A DNA stretch of 64,000 nt from Clostridia bacterium (GCA_017428025.1 JAFRRO010000065.1:2621-66620); one strand, 5' to 3'. Positions 1 to 11,392 are shown, counted from the first letter of the stretch. Translations and numbers: made by a program. Notes: generated by a model from the sequence alone, not told the origin.

Positions 1-1355
1 ACCGGCTCGTTCAGCGGAATGGTGTAGTAGCCGGAATAGGTCAGCGTGCCGGTCTGCGTGGTCATCAGCGTACCGGAGGACGGGTTGCCGGTCGTCGGAT
101 TCTTGTAGATCTCAAGCGTGTAGGTAAGCGCCTCGTCCCAGTTGCAGAGCGCGACCGCCTTGAGAAGCTCGCTGCCCTTTGCGGTAAAGACATTCGCGAC
201 CTTGGTATTGTTGGCAAATCCCACATAATAGTCTTCGGAGGAAGGCCAGCCCTTGCCATAGCAGACGACGTTGCAGGTGCCGTCGTACTGATAGTTGTGA
301 TCGTAGTTGTCGATCGGTTCCGCGTCGTAGAAGTAGATGTATCCTTCGCGAACGGTGGTGTCCTCATAGGAGATGTAGGTGTAGCCCTGGCTGAAATAGC
401 TCGTGCCCCAGCTGTTCTTGCAGATCCACGCGCCGCTGCCGGAGGGCTTGTTCGGAGAGAACCTGCTTGCCGCGATGCTGTCGTCCCACCCGACGATCGT
501 GATCGCGTGGTTCGACCACTTATGGGAGCTGCTGTCCTGAGAAGTGGTGTCGATCGTGCAGGTATAGGTGTAGGCGTTGCCGGTCTCATAATAGCTGATG
601 TTGCCGGCGCCGTATTCCATGATCGCGCGCTTGATGCCCTCGATGTCCGTCGCAGGGATCCAGACGGAGTTCTGGACGTGCGCAACGTTGCTCTGGTAGG
701 CGTATTGGCTGTCGAGGCCTGATTTTGCGACCGTGCTCGCCTTGCTGTACTGCAGTGCAGAGACGGATTCATCCGCCGCACCGACCCAGCTCTGCAGGGT
801 GTATGCGCTCATTTCGCCGTTGCCACCGGCATCCAGACAGCCGTCGGAGCCGAGCAGCGTGGTCTTGTCACCGGTCAGCATGCCCTCGGCGTCGTAGGCG
901 CTCGAGTAGTTGAAGAAGCAGTGCTGCGTCTCGGAAAGGTTGAGGCTCGTCGTGGCGGCGGAGCCGGTGGAACCGACCTCGATGCCGTGCTTGATCATGT
1001 AGCTCTCGACGCTCGCCATCGCCGCGTGCGCCCAGCAGGAGCCGTACGGGTTCTGGTTCTTGACGGAGGTCACGTAGCCAAGCGTGTTGCTGTTGTACGA
1101 TTTCGGCAGCGTATCGCGCGTAGCGGTTATGCCGGAGAGACGGTAATACGTCTCCATGTCGCCGCGGGCATATGCGTCGGAAACGGCGCGGGTGCCGTGC
1201 TCCGGCGAAGCGATATAGCCGTAATTGGTGGTCTCGCCCGGAAGACGATCCGATGCCGAATCGGTCTCCTCCGCAAACGATGCGGCAGGAAGAAGGGCGA
1301 TGAGCATAAACGCCGCCAGCAGGACGGCGAGCAGCTTCTTGGTTAGACGGCTCAT
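1..1355 (-). CDS. secreted papain-like cysteine peptidase (MEROPS C1 family); C-terminal part runs off the left edge
   Basis: Absent from the ORF track because it is open at the window edge. My own minus-strand translation from ATG 1355 gives MSRLTKKLLAVLLAAFMLIALLPAASFAEE (signal peptide). It then shows VKNQNPYGSCWAHAAMASVE (catalytic Cys block), SNHAITIVGWDD (His) and AWICKNSWG (Asn). GGAG lies 7 nt upstream of the ATG. Confidence 0.85.
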   Translation of the reverse strand, partial: MSRLTKKLLAVLLAAFMLIALLPAASFAEETDSASDRLPGETTNYGYIASPEHGTRAVSDAYARGDMETYYRLSGITATRDTLPKSYNSNTLGYVTSVKNQNPYGSCWAHAAMASVESYMIKHGIEVGSTGSAATTSLNLSETQHCFFNYSSAYDAEGMLTGDKTTLLGSDGCLDAGGNGEMSAYTLQSWVGAADESVSALQYSKASTVAKSGLDSQYAYQSNVAHVQNSVWIPATDIEGIKRAIMEYGAGNISYYETGNAYTYTCTIDTTSQDSSSHKWSNHAITIVGWDDSIAASRFSPNKPSGSGAWICKNSWGTSYFSQGYTYISYEDTTVREGYIYFYDAEPIDNYDHNYQYDGTCNVVCYGKGWPSSEDYYVGFANNTKVANVFTAKGSELLKAVALCNWDEALTYTLEIYKNPTTGNPSSGTLMTTQTGTLTYSGYYTIPLNEP

Positions 1356-1513
1356 AAAAGGTCTCCTCATCTGATAGTCTGCGCCAGAATACCGATACTC
1401 TGACTGCATGATTATAACACAGTCTGCACAAAAAAGTCCATACTTTTCCATACAAGCTTTTGTATCAATTTGCGATATTTATACAAAATGTAGCGAGTCG
1501 GCAGCTGTTTATC

Positions 1514-1546
1514 TACAAAGAAAGAACCGCCCCGAAGGACGGTTCC
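1514..1546 (-). terminator. rho-independent terminator after the cystatin-like lipoprotein gene
   Basis: Minus strand reads GAACCGTCC-TTCG-GGGCGGTTC followed by TTTCTTTG. Confidence 0.6.
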
Positions 1547-1558
1547 CGTTACGTTTGC

Positions 1559-3226
1559 TCAGTTTCCGAAGAAGTCGAGAATCTCGGTCACGGATGCGCT
1601 GCCGCTTTCATCCTCATACACATACAGGAACGCGTAATCGGACGACGGATCGGCGCTGACCGCGTTTGCTTCGCAGAAGAAGCAGTAATTGGTTCCGGAC
1701 GCGGACTGCGTGCTCAAAAGCGCGATCGGCGCGAACTTCGCCCCGAGCATCGAGCTGAGCGCTTCCTTCACCATGGAAGCCTGCGCGTTGCTCACCTTCG
1801 GATCGGACGCGTTCGTCCATCCGCCCATCGCCATTGCGGTATTCGTGCGAACGCCCGACATGTTCACGTCGGAGAGCGTCACCTTGCCGTCACGGTTCTC
1901 ATAGAGGATCACGATCGCATACAGATCCTGCGAATCGGGCGCCGCCATCGACGTCTCGCAAAGCACCGCGTAGTTCGTTCCGTTCACCTTCTGGGTTCCG
2001 ATCAGCGCCACGGGCGTATACTTGACGCCGACGGTCTTGTCGGAAAGCTTGTTGAACAGCTTCGTAAGCTTCTTGGTGATCGCGGGCGAAGAAGGTCTCT
2101 CCCATGCGCCGGGGGCTTCCTCGGTCGGGATCGGCGTCGGCTTCTCCGTGGGCTCTGGCGTCGGTTCCTCGGTCGGTTCCGGCGTCGGCTTCTCCGTGGG
2201 CTCGGGCGTCGGTTCCTCGGTCGGCTCCGGCGTCAGCTCCTTTGTCGGTTCGGGCGTCGGCTCCTTTGTCGGCTCCGCGGTCGGCTCTGCGGTCGGCGCT
2301 TCGGTCGGTTTCGGCGTCGCCGTGGGCTTTGCCGTGGGCGTTGCGGTCGGAACCGGCGTTGCGGTCGGGACCGGCGTCGCAGTCGGGACAGGCGTTGCGG
2401 TCGGAACCGGGGTTGCCGTCGGGACCGGCGTTGCGGTCGGAACCGGCGTTGCGGTCGGGACCTCGGTCGGCGCGACGGTCGGTTCCGGGGTCGGATCTTC
2501 CTGCGGCAGGTTCGCTTCGTCTTCGAATTCGACGATATGATCGACCGTATAGCTGCCGTCGTTGCTTCTGTTCAGATAGATAAAGGAATACCCCGTCTCC
2601 GCATTCTGCACGACCGGCGTGGACTCCGCAATCACCACGAACGAAAGACCGGACGCAATGCGCGTTGCGCACAGCGCCACGGGCACATATTCGACGCCGA
2701 GAATCTCTTTGAGCGCCGCTTGGCAGCCGTTCTTGAGCTCGTCGGTCAGGACAGGATCCTCCGCCTGTTCATATTCGTCGCCGTCCATACCGGTCGGGAC
2801 CGCGGAACGGCTGATGTCAATGATGCGCACGCTGCCGTCGCGTTCCTCATAGAGATACACCAGCGCATAGGTTTCACGCGCGCCGGGATACACCACACGC
2901 GCTCTCGTCAGGAACGTGTGAACCGTGCCGGACACGACCTGTTTGCCGAGATAGGCGACCGGAATATAGTTGACGCCCAAAAGCATGCTGAATCCCTTTT
3001 GGAAGACGTCCATCGCAGCGTCCGTCAGCGCGGGCGAATCTGCGGTTTCCCATTCGCTCGGATCGACGTCGATGATGACGATCACATCCTCGTCCGGATT
3101 GACCGTTTCCGCGGCATCCGGCTGTTCGCTCGCATCGGGCGCGGCCGGTGTCGGATCCGGTTCGATGCATGCCGCGAGCGTTGCGATCATGCATACCGCC
3201 AGGAGCAAAGAAAGAATTCTTTTCAT
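1559..3226 (-). CDS. lipoprotein with four cystatin/stefin-like repeats separated by a Pro/Thr-rich linker
   Basis: 555-aa ORF with lipobox LLAVCMIATLAAC. Four ~95-aa repeats end in KQVVSGTVHTF, TRIASGLSFVV, TQKVNGTNYAV and TQSASGTNYCF. Compare the stefin QVVAGTNY hairpin. A central ~130-aa PTATPV/EPTPEPTE linker separates them. Confidence 0.8.
   Translation of the reverse strand: MKRILSLLLAVCMIATLAACIEPDPTPAAPDASEQPDAAETVNPDEDVIVIIDVDPSEWETADSPALTDAAMDVFQKGFSMLLGVNYIPVAYLGKQVVSGTVHTFLTRARVVYPGARETYALVYLYEERDGSVRIIDISRSAVPTGMDGDEYEQAEDPVLTDELKNGCQAALKEILGVEYVPVALCATRIASGLSFVVIAESTPVVQNAETGYSFIYLNRSNDGSYTVDHIVEFEDEANLPQEDPTPEPTVAPTEVPTATPVPTATPVPTATPVPTATPVPTATPVPTATPVPTATPTAKPTATPKPTEAPTAEPTAEPTKEPTPEPTKELTPEPTEEPTPEPTEKPTPEPTEEPTPEPTEKPTPIPTEEAPGAWERPSSPAITKKLTKLFNKLSDKTVGVKYTPVALIGTQKVNGTNYAVLCETSMAAPDSQDLYAIVILYENRDGKVTLSDVNMSGVRTNTAMAMGGWTNASDPKVSNAQASMVKEALSSMLGAKFAPIALLSTQSASGTNYCFFCEANAVSADPSSDYAFLYVYEDESGSASVTEILDFFGN
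2133..2462 (-). repeat. in-frame tandem DNA repeats encoding the Pro/Thr linker
   Basis: A 48-bp unit occurs twice (2133-2180, 2181-2228). An 18-bp unit ggcgttgcggtcggRacc occurs seven times (2337-2462), encoding VPTATP repeats on the minus strand. Confidence 0.9.
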
Positions 3227-3331: not shown

Positions 3332-3360
3332 TTGACAACCTCGCCGCGGTATTGTAGAAT
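3332..3360 (+). promoter_or_regulatory. sigma-70-type promoter for tRNA-Val
   Basis: TTGACA (3332-3337), 17-nt spacer, TAGAAT (3355-3360), about 10 nt before the tRNA 5' end. Confidence 0.6.
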
Positions 3361-3369
3361 AATCGGCAC

Positions 3370-3446
3370 GGGGATGTAGCTCAGCTGGTCAGAGCGCTGT
3401 GTTCACATCGCAGAGGTCTAGGGTTCGAGCCCCTACATCCCCACCA
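3370..3446 (+). tRNA. tRNA-Val (anticodon CAC), CCA encoded
   Basis: Acceptor stem GGGGATG/CATCCCC, D-loop AGCTCAGCTGGTCAGAGC, anticodon stem CTGTG/CGCAG with loop TTCACAT, T-arm GGTTCGAGCCC, 3' ACCA. Confidence 0.95.
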
Positions 3447-7142: not shown

Positions 7143-8333
7143 ATGGAATCCATCGAAAACATGCGAAACGAATTTGAAAAGACGTTCGGGCGTCCCGCAA
7201 AGCGCGCGTTCACTTCCTGCGGACGCGCGGAGCTGATCGGCAACCACACCGACCATCAGCGCGGTCTGGTGCTTGCCTGCGGCGTGAATCTGTCCGCCGT
7301 GGCGCTTGCCGCGCCGAACGACCGCAACGAGGTCCGGCTTGTTTCGAAGGGCTTCCCCGCCTGTTCCGTCGCGCTCGACGCGCTGGAGCCCGATCCGAAG
7401 GAATACGGCACGACGGCGGCGCTTCTGCGCGGGGTGCTGAACGGAATCGTGCAGCGGGGCGCGGCGCCGTTCGGGCTCGATATCTACGTCGTGTCCAACG
7501 TGCTTTCCGGCAGCGGTCTGAGCTCGTCTGCGGCGATCGAGGTCCTGCTCGCGGGCGTGGCGGAAGGGTTCTATCTCGACGGCGACCTCGACGAGATCGC
7601 GCTTGCCGTGATCGGTCAGCGCGCCGAAAACGTGTATTTCGGAAAGCCGTCCGGTCTGCTCGACCAGATGGCATGCGCGCTCGGCGGCATCCAGTTCTTC
7701 GACTTCTCCGATCCCGCCGTGCCGTACGCGGAACGCATCGATTTCGATTTTCAGAAGTGCGGGCACACGCTCGTCGTCATCGACACCGGCGCCGATCATG
7801 CCGATCTGACCGATTGCTACGCCGCAATCACGCGCGAGCTTGCCTCGGTCGACGCGTTCTTCGGCGCGACCGCGCTGCGGGATGTGAACGAAAGCGATTT
7901 CTTCGCCTCTCTGCCGGTGCTGCGGCGGTTGTTCGGCGATCGCGCGATGCTGCGCGCCATGCATGTGTTCGACGAGAACCGCCGCGTGCTCAGAGCGCGC
8001 GAGGCGCTTTTGAACGACGATTTTCAGACCTTCCTCGATCAGCTCAACGCGTCGGGCGAATCGTCCTACACGATGCTGCAGAACGTGATCGCGGAGGGAC
8101 ACACGAACGCACAGGCGGTCGCGTTTACGATCTGCTACGCAAAGAAGCTCCTGAAAGGCCGCGGCGCGGTGCGCGTGCACGGCGGCGGCTTTGCGGGAAC
8201 GGTGCTCGCCGTGGTGCCGGACGATATGCTGAACGACTTCATCGCCGAAACGGACCGCGTGCTTGCGCCCGGCGCGTGCATGCCGCTCAAGGTGCGCAGA
8301 CGCGGCGTCTATGAACTTCCGCAGGAGGACTGA
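7143..8333 (+). CDS. galK: galactokinase
   Basis: GRAELIGNHTDHQRG signature and GHMP kinase motif SGSGLSSSAAIE. ATG 7143 is preferred over TTG 7137 because AAGGAG lies 8 nt upstream. Confidence 0.9.
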   Translation: MESIENMRNEFEKTFGRPAKRAFTSCGRAELIGNHTDHQRGLVLACGVNLSAVALAAPNDRNEVRLVSKGFPACSVALDALEPDPKEYGTTAALLRGVLNGIVQRGAAPFGLDIYVVSNVLSGSGLSSSAAIEVLLAGVAEGFYLDGDLDEIALAVIGQRAENVYFGKPSGLLDQMACALGGIQFFDFSDPAVPYAERIDFDFQKCGHTLVVIDTGADHADLTDCYAAITRELASVDAFFGATALRDVNESDFFASLPVLRRLFGDRAMLRAMHVFDENRRVLRAREALLNDDFQTFLDQLNASGESSYTMLQNVIAEGHTNAQAVAFTICYAKKLLKGRGAVRVHGGGFAGTVLAVVPDDMLNDFIAETDRVLAPGACMPLKVRRRGVYELPQED

Positions 8334-9688: not shown

Positions 9689-11392
9689 TTATTTCGTTTT
9701 GCCGTTCAGCACGTTCGACCAGCCGCCGTAGTACGTCATGCCGTTGAACTCGTGATACGAGCGCACCCGCGCGTAGTAGGTCGTTCTCGCCTTCAGGCTC
9801 TTGATCGTCGTCTGGTACGTCGCGGCGTTTGTGATCCTGACGGTTTTGATGTTCTTCGTAAACGCCGCATCGGTCGCGATCTGCACCTCGTAGCCCGTGA
9901 AGTTCTTCGAACCTTCCCACTTGACCGTCAGCTGCTTGCTGCCGCCGGTGACCGAAGTCAGCTTGCGTGTCGTGATGCGCACGGTCGTCTTCAAAGGTCC
10001 GACCATGCCGAGGTTGAAGTTGCCGGAATCCACGTTCACATTGCCGCCGATTTCGGTGCCCGAAACCGGATCGAGGCGTCTTGCAAAGTATGCCTTGACG
10101 CCGTACTGATAGCGCGTACCCGCATACACCTTATGCGCCGCGTCCACGCCGTCGATATAAGTCGTAGCGGTCGTATTGTTCCATCTTGCAAACGTCGTCC
10201 AGCCGTTGTCTACAAGGTTCCATGCACGGCGGTAGATGACGTATCCCGCAGCGCCCTCGACCGGCGCCCAGGTCACCAAAATACCTTCATCGACGTTCTC
10301 GACGGTCGTCTTGGTCGTGGCGGGCAGATAGATCTTGAAGCTGCCGCGGCATTCGCCCGCATACGCGTTTTTCAGCGTAACGAACACATAGCCGGTGCCC
10401 GCCTGCGTATTCTCCTTGTATTCATAGTCGTAGTTCGACGGATCGATCACGCTGCCGTCGAGGCTGTTCTTGATGTAGAACCGCGGCGTGTGCGCCTTGC
10501 CGTCGTACAGCACGTACGCGGTCTTGCCCTTGAACTGCACGTCGTTCGCGTTCCATTCAACCGTGCAGTCCGTCGTCTCAGAGCGCAGACATCTGACGGT
10601 GACGCCCTCGGGAATCAAAAGATCGCCGTACGCATCGTATGCAAGCGCATTCCACTGCGATTCCGTGCCGTCGAAGTCGATCGTCTTGAGGTTCTCGCAG
10701 AAAACGAAAGCCTGCGCGCCGATCGAGGTCAGTCCGTTCGGCAGCGACACATGCGTGATCCGGTCAAAGATCGGTTCCCACGGCAGGTCGTAATCATCCA
10801 TCGCGCCGCTTCCGGTCACCGTCAGCGTGCCCTTGTCGTAGGTCCAATCGAGATTCGGGCCGGGCTTCTGATCGAACATGAAGCAGTAATACGATTCCGA
10901 CGGGAACGCGTCCGAAGCGACCGTCACGCCGTTCCACATCGCCTCCGTGCCGATATAGTAGACGGCGGGATCCGAAACCTCAAAGATGCGGCAGTCACGG
11001 AACGCGCAGGTTCCGATGCGCGTGACTTCCTTCGGGATCACGACGCCGAACACGCGGTCGATGTCCGCAAACGCATAGTTGCCGATGCTCGTCAGTCCGT
11101 CCGGCAGCCAGATTTCGTCGATGGATGCGGCGAGGTTGTGCCACGGCGCGGGCGTCGACGCGGTATAGTTGTACATCGAACCTCTGCCCGTGATCTTGAG
11201 CCGGTGCACGGTCTCGTCCGGATTCTCGTCCTCGATGACCTGATATTCCCATTTCAGGAAATCGCCGCACGGATCGTTGCCGCCGATCTCCGGCAGCTCG
11301 ATATCGCCGTCCGCACGCGCGCGCTGAAACGGCGCCGCAAGCAGCAGCAGACAGAACAGGATTGCAAGAGTTTTGATGACAGAGTGTTTCAT
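9689..11392 (-). CDS. secreted BspA-type leucine-rich-repeat protein with C-terminal Ig/Fn3-like domains
   Basis: Start set at ATG 11392 (MKHSVIKTLAILFCLLLLAAPFQRARA signal peptide). Repeated LP(D/N)GLTSIG..AF modules. The C-terminal block KQLTVKWEGSKNFTGYEVQ is Fn3-like. Confidence 0.75.
   Translation of the reverse strand: MKHSVIKTLAILFCLLLLAAPFQRARADGDIELPEIGGNDPCGDFLKWEYQVIEDENPDETVHRLKITGRGSMYNYTASTPAPWHNLAASIDEIWLPDGLTSIGNYAFADIDRVFGVVIPKEVTRIGTCAFRDCRIFEVSDPAVYYIGTEAMWNGVTVASDAFPSESYYCFMFDQKPGPNLDWTYDKGTLTVTGSGAMDDYDLPWEPIFDRITHVSLPNGLTSIGAQAFVFCENLKTIDFDGTESQWNALAYDAYGDLLIPEGVTVRCLRSETTDCTVEWNANDVQFKGKTAYVLYDGKAHTPRFYIKNSLDGSVIDPSNYDYEYKENTQAGTGYVFVTLKNAYAGECRGSFKIYLPATTKTTVENVDEGILVTWAPVEGAAGYVIYRRAWNLVDNGWTTFARWNNTTATTYIDGVDAAHKVYAGTRYQYGVKAYFARRLDPVSGTEIGGNVNVDSGNFNLGMVGPLKTTVRITTRKLTSVTGGSKQLTVKWEGSKNFTGYEVQIATDAAFTKNIKTVRITNAATYQTTIKSLKARTTYYARVRSYHEFNGMTYYGGWSNVLNGKTK

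Follow-up and report, generated by a model that had tools for sequence, protein, structure and literature searches.

Stefin-like proteins of bacteria, Clostridial ones included, were described in silico in 2009 (Kordis & Turk, 2009; PMC2784779). In that study their distribution was called ‘extremely limited’ (17 genera), a multidomain form was noted only for one Polaribacter cystatin, and the proposed role was defence against host proteases; the authors also pointed out that inhibitory function has been lost repeatedly within the cystatin superfamily. Examples given in their supplementary file 11 read LIGVEYEPKILATQSVNGTNYCFICK (Clostridium) and GVGYKPLAFATQVVAGTNYCFLLCK (Burkholderia).

The eukaryotic counterparts, human stefins A and B (type-1 cystatins, MEROPS I25A), are single-domain cytosolic proteins without a signal peptide. 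Secreted parasite type-1 cystatins such as that of Fasciola hepatica (PDB entry 6i1m) combine a stefin-type sequence with a secretion signal and act on exogenous proteases, as single-domain soluble proteins. Tandem cystatin domains are found in the eukaryotic multicystatins (kininogens, potato multicystatin and the two-domain phytocystatins), where they provide several protease-binding heads, some of which are inactive (kininogen domain 1). These are type-2 or phyto cystatins that arose independently; they are soluble, secreted or stored, and none of them is lipid-anchored or separates pairs of domains by a Pro/Thr spacer. The double-cystatin-fold inhibitors latexin and fetuin-B target carboxypeptidase A and astacins/meprins, respectively, and the fold also occurs in non-inhibitory proteins such as monellin and the cathelicidin pro-domains. 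In another bacterial system, that of staphostatin and staphopain, an inhibitor gene located beside that of a secreted cysteine peptidase protects the producer; staphostatins are cytoplasmic lipocalin-like barrels, co-transcribed with the protease in a conserved pairing.

The gene analysed here, located in a 64,000-nucleotide window of a Clostridia bacterium genome (the whole stretch of DNA under study), encodes a 555-residue protein with the N-terminus MKRILSLLLAVCMIATLAAC. It differs from the proteins of Kordis & Turk (2009) in its build, with four domains, a lipid anchor and an extended Pro/Thr spacer, and its family is far larger than was reported then.

A lipoprotein with four stefin-like repeats

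The protein contains four repeats of about 92 residues (R1–R4), arranged two by two around a 130-residue Pro/Thr linker (Table 1). This layout had been proposed in an earlier sequence-only reading, and the four repeat-end blocks quoted there are all present verbatim in the translation. The trailing motif YA(L/I)V.LYE..DG, which was said to follow each block, is found in R1 and R3 but not in R2 (YSFIYLNRSNDG) or R4 (YAFLYVYEDESG). The N-terminus reads as a lipoprotein signal peptide, in which an n-region with Lys/Arg and a hydrophobic h-region are followed by the lipobox MKRILSLLLAVCMIATL-A-A-C20 (pattern [LVI][ASTVI][GAS]C), in line with the lipobox and the multi-headed lipoprotein that had been claimed. 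At the DNA level the linker consists of tandem repeats with periods of 18/24/48, and its match to the Pfam PT-repeat model lies below threshold.

Table 1. Features at the start of the window (positions on the window; residues numbered on the encoded protein).
Feature	Positions	Strand	Remarks
Secreted Cwp84-type C1A cysteine peptidase, 5′ part	1..1355	−	451 codons; C-terminus beyond the window
Promoter-like site of the peptidase gene	1411..1440	−	TGGACT, 18 nt, TG-TATAAT, then RBS GAGGAGA; consensus match
Intrinsic terminator of the lipoprotein gene	1522..1547	−	11-bp stem, TTCG loop, T-rich tail
Four-stefin-like-domain lipoprotein gene	1559..3226	−	555 aa, stop codon included; ORF list, translation, family-profile matches
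Repeat R4	1562..1840	−	aa 463–555; GGW ... QSASGTNY; GG retained, hairpin Val to Ala
Repeat R3	1841..2116	−	aa 371–462; GAW ... QKVNGTNY; QxVxG and one N-terminal Gly retained
Pro/Thr/Glu-rich linker	2117..2506	−	aa 241–370 (130 aa); (PTATPV)n then (EPTPEPTE/K)n
Repeat R2	2507..2791	−	aa 146–240; degenerate hairpin RIASG, without N-terminal Gly
Repeat R1	2792..3064	−	aa 55–145; hairpin QVVSG, canonical QxVxG; SEW instead of GGW
Lipoprotein signal peptide	3167..3226	−	aa 1–20; lipobox LAAC, predicted lipidated residue Cys20; read from sequence
tRNA-Val(CAC)	3370..3446	+	next to the lipoprotein gene, in divergent orientation; given for context

A profile built from 320 family repeats, with the window protein, its relatives and its subclade left out, matched R1, R2, R3 and R4 with E values of 3.8e-31, 7.3e-25, 3.5e-33 and 1.6e-32, respectively, far beyond chance. 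Searched against the sequences of the PDB, the repeat profile gave eight matches at E < 10, all of them cystatins or stefins, although the E values of individual PDB sequences are weak (0.02–0.8); R4 alone matched a stefin (PDB entry 8gqq) with E = 0.03 in phmmer. HHalign aligned 72 columns of the family profile, running from GG to LPG, with human stefin A (Prob 94%, P = 1.4e-7), whereas 20 shuffled controls all gave P ≥ 0.08; a smaller profile, A1, reached 68% and 4.8e-5. On the other hand, the Pfam Cystatin model (PF00031), a check suggested in the sequence-only reading, matched neither the whole protein nor any window repeat, even at E ≤ 10. Its scores for the relatives come close to threshold (E about 0.03; 22.0 bits against a cutoff of 22.2 for P0021), and the miss is a failure of model sensitivity rather than evidence against homology.

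The predicted structures point the same way, to the cystatin fold, in which an antiparallel sheet of five strands wraps around a single helix. The AlphaFold model of R4 (pLDDT 84.5, pTM 0.77) has the order b1-a-b2-L1-b3-b4-L2-b5, which is that of human stefins, and the model of the R1–R2 didomain (pLDDT 84.5, pTM 0.82) also shows the cystatin strand order, the fold being retained in R2. Foldseek placed cystatins first for both models, with TM values of about 0.55–0.6. For R4 the best matches (best E 3e-3, prob 0.94–1.0) were sialostatin L2, cystatin C, ricistatin bound to cathepsin V, the Fasciola stefin and phytocystatins; potato multicystatin (PDB entry 2w9p) was matched as well, and 6i1m turned up in the sequence search as well as in the fold search. 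Sequence profile, motif and predicted fold thus support the assignment of R1–R4 as cystatin/stefin homologs, within the cystatin superfamily (MEROPS I25 / Pfam clan Cystatin).

For R1–R2 the best match was a two-domain phytocystatin (PDB entry 2mzv, E = 2.7e-5), followed by latexin (E = 3.2e-3, prob 0.99) and fetuin-B (prob 0.96). We may wonder whether the protein inhibits another class of protease, either legumain-type (C13) enzymes or, like latexin and fetuin-B, metallopeptidases; some relatives moreover weakly match SQAPI, a cystatin-derived aspartic-protease inhibitor. This would be very improbable: the similarity to latexin and fetuin-B stems from the tandem cystatin fold that they have in common with the model, while the RMSD of 14–17 Å over the R1–R2 pair indicates that the domain arrangement differs from theirs. 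Furthermore, the motifs conserved in the family are those of the C1-binding wedge, neither a metallopeptidase nor a legumain gene was seen to recur beside the family loci, and the Asn-based legumain site of type-2 cystatins was not noticed.

The protein is therefore stefin-like in sequence, with domains of stefin size (about 95 residues in human stefins) and no paired conserved cysteines, but its lipoprotein signal peptide and its four domains set it apart, in cell-biological terms, from the classical stefins. It also departs from stefins A and B in its variant hairpins and in the two repeats devoid of the N-terminal glycine, and pairwise identity is about 22–24%.

The bacterial stefin family and its inhibitory motifs

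Clustering at 50% identity divides the family into 2,821 clusters; its members have one to six domains and are mostly secreted or lipid-anchored: a lipobox-like motif is present in 107 of 169 representatives, and a signal or lipobox region in 108 of 119 single-domain relatives. All of the members that we encountered are named ‘hypothetical protein’ in databases. By its sequence signature, this is the family of ‘bacterial stefins’ that Kordis & Turk had predicted from in silico work (2009; PMC2784779). Their alignment, compared by eye and not by formal alignment, shares ..G(V/A).Y.P(V/I)A..(T/S)QVVAGTNY.F.C.. with the family pattern L.G..Y.PVA.L..QVVAGTNY..LC, as well as the domain size, the lack of conserved disulfide pairs and the presence of Clostridial members. 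The statement in the sequence-only reading that no bacterial tandem cystatin has been characterized appears true as regards experiments, since we found none in the literature on any member of this bacterial family, but it overlooked the in silico description of 2009.

All three elements of the stefin inhibitory wedge are conserved family-wide: Gly-Gly near the N-terminus, QVVAG(TNY) in the first hairpin and L-x-G in the second. The consensus of 357 family repeats reads GGW...QVVAGTNY...L.G, with 91% Q, 99% G and 89% N, and with the N-terminal Gly pair at 92% and 85%. The Q...G hairpin (consensus QVVAG) is present in 369 of 412 repeats; QVVAGTNY is identical to the stefin A/B sequence, and the second-hairpin consensus D-L-x-G lines up with S-L-P-G of stefin A. 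In P0318, the sole single-domain relative examined in full, the predicted mature start ...EPMLGGW resembles MIPGGL of stefin A.

The window repeats are less canonical than their family at the trunk glycine, the first-hairpin Gln/Val and the second-hairpin Leu. The Q-x-x-x-G pattern that had been noted in R1, R3 and R4 is indeed kept there, QxVxG in the strict sense being found in R1 and R3, with Ala for Val in R4, whereas R2 fails. Glycine in the N-terminal trunk is limited to R3 and R4, R1 and R2 having SEW and DEY. The second hairpins, whose contact is LP in stefins and PW in cystatins, read ERDG, SNDG, NRDG and DESG, so that the glycine alone is retained and the Leu in none. The Gln of R2 is replaced by R/K throughout the subclade members inspected (P0023, P0025 and L001), and R2 is probably not a canonical inhibitory head.

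This erosion raises the question of whether the cystatin fold serves here as a scaffold for surface display, adhesion or ligand binding, without protease inhibition. Such a use would be consistent with the loss of the N-terminal Gly in R1 and R2, of the Gln in R2 and of any second-hairpin Leu/Pro/Trp, with strongly degenerate, acidic relatives (P0026 and P0063, for example, with DDW and without QxVxG), with the PT-linked tandem modules typical of surface scaffolds, and with the repeated functional losses in the superfamily mentioned above (PMC2784779). However, conservation across the family is highest at the three inhibitory elements (G 92%, Q 91%, G 99%, N 89%), which is hard to explain without a canonical binding function; Q-x-(V/A)-x-G is retained in three of the four window repeats, and the signal-peptide boundary of P0318 falls just before GG, as a stefin-like trunk needs. 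We thus consider a purely scaffolding role to be quite unlikely.

Relation to the neighbouring Cwp84-type peptidase

Downstream of the lipoprotein gene on the same strand lies the 5′ part of a C1 peptidase gene. The encoded protein has a signal peptide (residues 1–28), a short pro-region (29–82), a catalytic domain (83–345) and the start of a lectin-like domain (Pfam Peptidase_C1, 1.7e-16; Lectin_like, 4.4e-14), with the triad Cys107 (GSCWA), His283 (NHAIT) and Asn314 (KNSWG). Its signal peptide, catalytic residues and gap of about 55 residues between signal peptide and mature domain agree with what had been read from the sequence. The best PDB match is Cwp84 (PDB entries 4d59/4ci7, 7.5e-20) of Clostridioides difficile, which likewise combines a signal peptide, a short non-I29 propeptide and C1A and lectin-like domains. 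Cwp84 has CWB2 wall-binding repeats, and SlpA is its substrate; the neighbouring peptidase gene runs past the edge of the window, and homologs of the enzyme, of 500–790 residues, carry SLH, Big_2 or other anchor domains.

The sequence-only reading took the lipoprotein for the dedicated inhibitor of this peptidase, guarding the envelope or buffering the enzyme; the logic would be that of the staphostatin–staphopain pair. Several observations would fit: the two genes lie side by side in the same orientation in this species, and again in a further contig of it (L095), both products are extracytoplasmic, stefins inhibit C1A enzymes, and the divergent hairpins of the subclade could reflect adaptation to one particular enzyme. 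The argument drawn from the missing I29 propeptide is weak, as the short propeptide of Cwp84-type peptidases itself occupies the active-site groove.

The arrangement of the genes speaks against this pairing. As judged from the sequence, they are separate transcription units, because the terminator already noticed in the earlier reading and a promoter-like site and RBS belonging to the peptidase gene stand between them. A C1 profile (positive control, 2.7e-117) was run over the surroundings of 90 family loci, out to about 10 kb (1.22 Mb in all), and detected no C1 peptidase, nor did an active-site regex; the profile was made from Cwp84-type enzymes, and very divergent C1 peptidases could escape it. 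Within the four-repeat subclade the adjacency is absent at three other loci (L001, L099 and the partial L004); for L099, an ortholog locus additional to the 90, the precomputed Pfam gene table contains no C1 peptidase. Conversely, no stefin-like gene was found at the seven loci of six peptidase orthologs (65–82% identity). No neighbour recurs at the family loci, the best neighbour family being present in only five of 61. Outside the window the pairing is seen solely in L095 (95–99% nucleotide identity), and the adjacency is a species-specific arrangement. The sequence-only reading had named a lack of co-occurrence of the two families beyond this genome as a refutation, and by this criterion the neighbourhood link fails. 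Neither co-transcription nor cross-species adjacency, the marks of a cognate gene pair, was thus found, unlike for the staphostatins, from which the window protein also differs by its cystatin fold and its extracytoplasmic location. Since its position beside the peptidase gene is not conserved in other species, the lipoprotein is probably not a dedicated partner, and we regard the proposal of a cognate inhibitor as unlikely.

Possible action in trans and candidate targets

We favour, as reasonably probable, a lipid-anchored four-domain bacterial stefin that would act in trans as a surface-tethered inhibitor of papain-like peptidases. Export and lipidation at Cys20 would display both domain pairs outside the membrane, the distal pair R3–R4 being carried at the end of the Pro/Thr spacer, which could reach through the wall. 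The Q-x-(V/A)-x-G heads of R1, R3 and R4 would reversibly occupy and block the active-site cleft of C1A peptidases, while R2, whose Gln is lost across the subclade, is likely to be a non-canonical or structural module. The protein would act on papain-like peptidases that the cell encounters at its surface, with no single-gene partner.

The targets may be enzymes of other origin present in the rumen or gut, such as ciliate lysosomal cathepsins or C1 peptidases of plants or other microbes, a proposal that stems from ecology. Each day about 24% of the bacteria in the rumen are engulfed by its ciliates, in which C01A cathepsins are highly expressed (PMC6908469, PMC6925433). The Cwp84-type surface peptidases of the cell itself are a further possible target. 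About 47 of the best 80 genome loci, as counted by isolate names, come from ruminant-gut MAGs, and the same-species contig L095 bears the sample label ‘STEW19’, which we take to be that of a rumen MAG compendium.

The lipoprotein and its four repeats

The 555-residue lipoprotein begins with a lipoprotein signal carrying the lipobox LAAC and contains four repeats, R1–R4, with a Pro/Thr/Glu linker of 130 residues parting R2 from R3. The DNA of this linker (2117–2506) is made of tandem repeats with periods of 18, 24 and 48. Identity to R4 among the repeats is 27–28% (MAFFT). A profile of 320 repeats from other proteins, from which the window protein, all proteins retrieved with the window query and the two closest subclade representatives had been left out, finds all four units (independent E values of 3.8e-31, 7.3e-25, 3.5e-33 and 1.6e-32 for R1–R4); judged from this profile, the four-repeat pattern is not due to chance. 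The open reading frame, the lipobox and the repeats described in the sequence-only reading are therefore all present, and every peptide block quoted there occurs in the product.

Features of the lipoprotein–peptidase region (nucleotide positions in the window; aa, residues of the lipoprotein)
Feature	Position	Strand	Remarks
C1 peptidase, 5′ part	1355 to window edge	minus	signal peptide, ~55-residue pro-region, Peptidase_C1, start of Lectin_like
Promoter-like site, TG-extended −10, and RBS	1411–1440	minus	5′ of peptidase start
Terminator, 11-bp stem	1522–1547	minus	3′ of lipoprotein stop codon
Lipoprotein ORF	1559–3226	minus	555 residues, starts MKRILSLLLAVCMIATLAAC
R1	aa 55–145		MAFFT
R2	aa 146–240		MAFFT
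R3	aa 371–462		MAFFT
R4	aa 463–555		MAFFT
Promoter-like site (TTGACA, 17 nt, TAGAAT), strong	3332–3360	plus	probably drives tRNA-Val

The repeats had been proposed to be stefin/cystatin-like, with Pfam Cystatin as one check. That check fails: Pfam and NCBIfam scans give no cystatin match for the whole lipoprotein or for any repeat, and PF00031 matches none of the 21 aligned family repeats. The matches of these libraries in the linker (PT, DnaX-like) are low-complexity only, and the P14 and circumsporozoite protein matches of the whole lipoprotein in a phmmer search of the PDB were discarded as compositional, arising from the same linker. Nevertheless, the proposal itself holds. With R3–R4 as the phmmer query against PDB sequences, the top match is Dictyostelium cystatin-A2 (PDB entry 8gqq; E = 0.03), in a nearly full-length alignment with its QLVNGTNY set against QSASGTNY of R4. 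The 21-repeat family profile (A1) retrieves eight PDB sequences at E < 10, all of them cystatins or stefins. HHalign aligns the family profile with human stefin A over 72 columns (probability 94%, P = 1.4e-7), pairing GG with GG, QVVAGTNY with QVVAGTNY and L-x-G with L-P-G, against P values of 0.08 or more for the controls (20 shuffles and the reversed sequence); the small profile A1 gives 68% and 4.8e-5. Indeed, the first hairpin of human stefins A and B, QVVAGTNY, is exactly the bacterial family consensus. Relatives lie at the edge of the Pfam Cystatin threshold, such as the family protein P0021 (22.0 bits for a cutoff of 22.2), and some touch SQAPI, a cystatin recruited as an aspartic protease inhibitor (Kordis & Turk; PMC2784779).

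The predicted structures agree with these alignments. The AlphaFold2 model of R4 (pLDDT 84.5, pTM 0.77) has the order b1–helix–b2–hairpin–b3–b4–hairpin–b5, and its top Foldseek matches in the PDB (probabilities 0.94–1.0, TM about 0.55–0.6) are sialostatin L2, cystatin C, ricistatin bound to cathepsin V, a Fasciola secreted stefin, phytocystatins, fetuin-B and potato multicystatin. The more divergent R1–R2 pair (residues 50–240; pLDDT 84.5) best matches double cystatin folds, namely a two-domain sesame phytocystatin (E = 2.7e-5), latexin and fetuin-B. Its pTM of 0.82 is high for a two-domain chain, which suggests that the modelled domains are packed in a fixed arrangement rather than as beads on a string. 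PDB sequence matches, profiles, HHalign and predicted structures thus agree in assigning each of the four repeats to the cystatin fold, stefin type. Latexin and fetuin-B, like SQAPI, are a reminder that this fold can serve against another protease class; such a role is very improbable for the lipoprotein, given that the motifs conserved in the family are those of the C1-binding wedge.

A long Pro/Thr (PT) linker and four repeats define a subclade formed by the window protein, P0023, P0025/P0311, the gene in locus L001 and P0309 in locus L099. The motifs were read for the window protein, P0023, P0025/P0311 and the L001 ORF. In all of these R1 reads QVV(A/S)GT(V/I)H without the N-terminal Gly-Gly, in R3 Q-x-V-x-GTNY is accompanied by G(A/V)W and in R4 Q-x-A-S-G by GGW, and in R2 an Arg or Lys replaces the Gln. 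Since this replacement is common to all the R2s read, R2 appears to be a conserved degenerate head. Domain 1 of kininogens, which is inactive, offers a parallel. A head of this kind might be expected in a non-inhibitory cystatin-fold scaffold, a reading that we consider quite unlikely for the lipoprotein as a whole, with the Gln and Gly of the hairpin kept in the other three heads.

The repetitive linker DNA breaks public assemblies, as seen from a run of N in L001 (~9750–9860) and a frameshift in locus L095 (~7300–7660). Most database relatives are for this reason truncated gene calls that start inside R3 (for example P0001 and P0004–P0010), so that family size and domain counts based on gene calls are underestimates.

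A family of bacterial stefins

In eukaryotes, cystatins and stefins are textbook regulators of papain-like proteases. Bacterial members were first reported by Kordis & Turk (2009; PMC2784779), by sequence searches only, in 17 genera including Clostridium; their distribution was termed ‘extremely limited’, Polaribacter had one triplicated cystatin, and the proteins were proposed as ‘emergency inhibitors’ against host proteolysis. The supplementary alignment of that survey has the same signature as the family described here (e.g. LIGVEYEPKILATQSVNGTNYCFICK and GVGYKPLAFATQVVAGTNYCFLLCK), and on this common signature we assign the window protein to the bacterial stefins. In our full-text literature searches, no bacterial member turned up as the subject of an experimental study; on characterised bacterial cystatins or the cystatin sensitivity of Cwp84, the relevant papers were limited to that survey, a review of 2012 and the paper describing the Cwp84 structure. 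The earlier statement that no bacterial tandem cystatin has been characterised therefore appears to stand as regards experiment, but the family had already been described in silico in 2009. Both this kind of inhibitor and its bacterial branch were known from sequence analysis, and the lipoprotein involves no unprecedented mechanism. What is new is the lipid-anchored, PT-stalked, four-headed architecture, as predicted from sequence, together with the actual size of the family, its bias in habitat and the finding that annotation misses it entirely.

Hitherto treated as rare curiosities known only from the 2009 survey, bacterial stefins form, in current data, a family much bigger and more varied than then reported, large in anaerobic Firmicutes of the gut and rumen. 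A profile search of 1.84 billion representatives retrieved 2,821 proteins at E ≤ 1e-3 (clusters at 50% identity). Among species-representative genomes, a scan for QVVAGTNY with a query built from canonical repeats gave at least 600 pattern matches, at least 426 of which were confirmed as relatives; the best 80 of these loci are almost all from Clostridia, and about 47 of the 80 come from ruminant-gut MAGs and a few from human gut (count of isolate names). The consensus of 357 full-length repeats from the top 169 proteins (150 top profile matches and the closest relatives of the window protein) is GGW..P.T.E...F.KA...L.G..Y.PVA.L..QVVAGTNY..LC....Y..V..Y.DL.G, with the Gln conserved in 91%, the hairpin Gly in 99%, the Asn in 89% and the two N-terminal Gly in 92% and 85% of the repeats.

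Secreted, lipid-anchored and multi-headed forms have arisen within the family. Two repeats are found in 130 of the 169 proteins, three in 10, four in 25 and five or six in 3, and the N-terminus is lipobox-like in 107. A word-indexed search with canonical repeats yielded 1,281 clusters (90% identity), among them many single-domain proteins of 118–130 residues; a signal or lipobox region was present in 108 of 119 single-domain proteins from this search. The full sequence of one member, P0318, is predicted to mature to ...EPMLGGW, closely mimicking the MIPGGL trunk of stefin A. To annotation the family is essentially invisible: source-attached names were all ‘hypothetical protein’, and none of these entries carried a precomputed Pfam domain. 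With a dedicated profile HMM, thousands of proteins would be annotated.

Strand b3 carries a Cys in 80% of the family repeats; three positions before it, 38% have another (alignment columns 52 and 55). In the window protein R3 reads ‘LCE’ and R4 ‘CFFCE’ here, and R1 and R2 lack both. Human stefin A, in contrast, has no Cys at the position aligned to the b3 Cys, and exported proteins of Gram-positive bacteria seldom contain free cysteines.

The neighbouring peptidase

As noted in the sequence-only reading, a C1 peptidase with a signal peptide lies downstream on the same strand, with the catalytic residues Cys107, His283 and Asn314 in place (Pfam Peptidase_C1, 1.7e-16; Lectin_like, 4.4e-14). Its closest solved relative is Clostridioides difficile Cwp84 (PDB entries 4d59/4ci7; E = 7.5e-20), through the catalytic and lectin-like domains. 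The 120 listed of 345 homologs carry Peptidase_C1, most also Lectin_like, and many add surface-anchor domains such as SLH, Big_2 and SH3. A long I29 propeptide is indeed missing, but a zymogen mechanism is not thereby lost, because in Cwp84 a short propeptide (residues 33–91) occupies the active-site groove (PMC4089489). The cleft of the enzyme may also be poorly shaped for a cystatin wedge.

The terminator and the promoter-like site between the two genes point to two transcription units. The adjacency had been read as an inhibitor guarding its own protease, with co-occurrence beyond this genome set beforehand as a criterion. A profile of 121 Cwp84-type catalytic domains, which scores the window enzyme at 2.7e-117, found no C1 peptidase in 1.22 Mb around 90 family loci (E ≤ 1, filters off), nor did an active-site regular expression over the same loci. 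Among the loci without a C1 neighbour are others of the four-repeat subclade (L001, on a 297-kb contig; L099; the partial L004). Conversely, no stefin-profile match occurs near six peptidase orthologs of 65–82% identity (seven loci: L091–L094, L096–L098). The pairing recurs only in L095, which, with DNA 95–99% identical to the window, is the same species; adjacency of the two genes is thus a species-specific feature. No recurrent partner of any kind emerged when three genes on either side of 61 family genes were clustered, the best family being found at 5 of 61, and comparison of L099 with L001, L002, L004 and L005 shows that the gene context is unrelated from genome to genome. The ‘inhibitor guards its own protease’ reading is thus not supported, and a dedicated self-inhibitor of the neighbouring enzyme is unlikely. 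This comparative test addresses neighbourhood pairing; inhibition of Cwp84-type enzymes in trans is still compatible with it.

Two neighbours were considered and rejected: a 358-residue unannotated gene product upstream of the L091 peptidase ortholog has no stefin-profile match and looks kinase/phosphotransferase-like by eye, and an 894-residue neighbour in L004, considered as a hidden peptidase, is a GH2-like glycosidase. In L099 (276–7221), P0309 sits between two PFL-like glycyl-radical enzyme genes. A divergent tRNA-Val(CAC) gene (3370–3446, plus strand) lies just upstream of the lipoprotein gene; a tRNA-targeted genomic island is not obvious, because the lipoprotein and peptidase genes lie 5′ of the tRNA, and no integrase was seen. 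Finally, a lipoprotein of 175–179 residues without any Pfam domain is conserved between L092 (7276–7803, minus) and L093 (7214–7753, minus), directly upstream of peptidase orthologs (67% and 65% identity) and divergently transcribed. Both copies have the motif FNW(Q/R)(F/Y)FLAKV and adjoin DUF2500 genes; this protein could be a different partner of the peptidase lineage.

Candidate targets at the cell surface

The lipoprotein combines an export signal and lipobox with four predicted cystatin-fold domains, and its family keeps the tripartite stefin wedge. In the likeliest mechanism, Cys20 would anchor it to the outer face of the membrane, and the PT stalk would push the R3–R4 pair outward. Heads with Q-x-(V/A)-x-G, together with a Gly-containing trunk where present, would insert their hairpin into the cleft of a papain-family enzyme and block it reversibly. 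Because the members are secreted proteins from stand-alone genes, concentrated in Clostridia of the gut and rumen, we favour targets met at the cell surface over a single cognate enzyme.

Each day rumen ciliates take up about a quarter of the rumen bacteria, which they digest with lysozyme and peptidases; their C01A cathepsins, some of which have signal peptides, are highly expressed (PMC6908469, PMC6925433). These cathepsins are one hypothetical target. More broadly, surface-tethered single- or multi-headed stefins might be a defence against digestion that is widespread in Clostridia of the rumen and gut, a tentative proposal that we place on the improbable side. Lipid anchors and long Pro/Thr stalks would display the stefins, lysosomal C1A cathepsins of bacterivorous ciliates (or papain-like enzymes of host or plant) would be neutralised at the bacterial surface, and engulfed cells would be degraded at a lower rate. 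If this were true, the stefins would form a large, hitherto unrecognised system of prey defence, taken over from eukaryotes, with effects on rumen nitrogen recycling. If ciliate or host cathepsins are the targets, the family matters for how bacteria survive predation and for rumen protein turnover; if the bacteria’s own Cwp84-type enzymes are, for the control of surface-layer processing. The old question of what bacterial stefins inhibit is now directly testable, since the motifs are intact to differing degrees in the heads of the window protein, and the adjacent gene supplies a candidate endogenous enzyme that can serve as a control.

A minor observation concerns P0026 (987 residues), in which SAM_HAT_C and tyrosine-phosphatase (Y_phosphatase3) domains are fused to five acidic, motif-degenerate stefin-like repeats that read DDW and lack QxVxG. 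In L002 (11392–12527), separate SAM_HAT_C and Y_phosphatase3 genes lie 3–4 kb downstream of the stefin-like gene P0003; the association may be fortuitous or may indicate a second functional setting of degenerate repeats.
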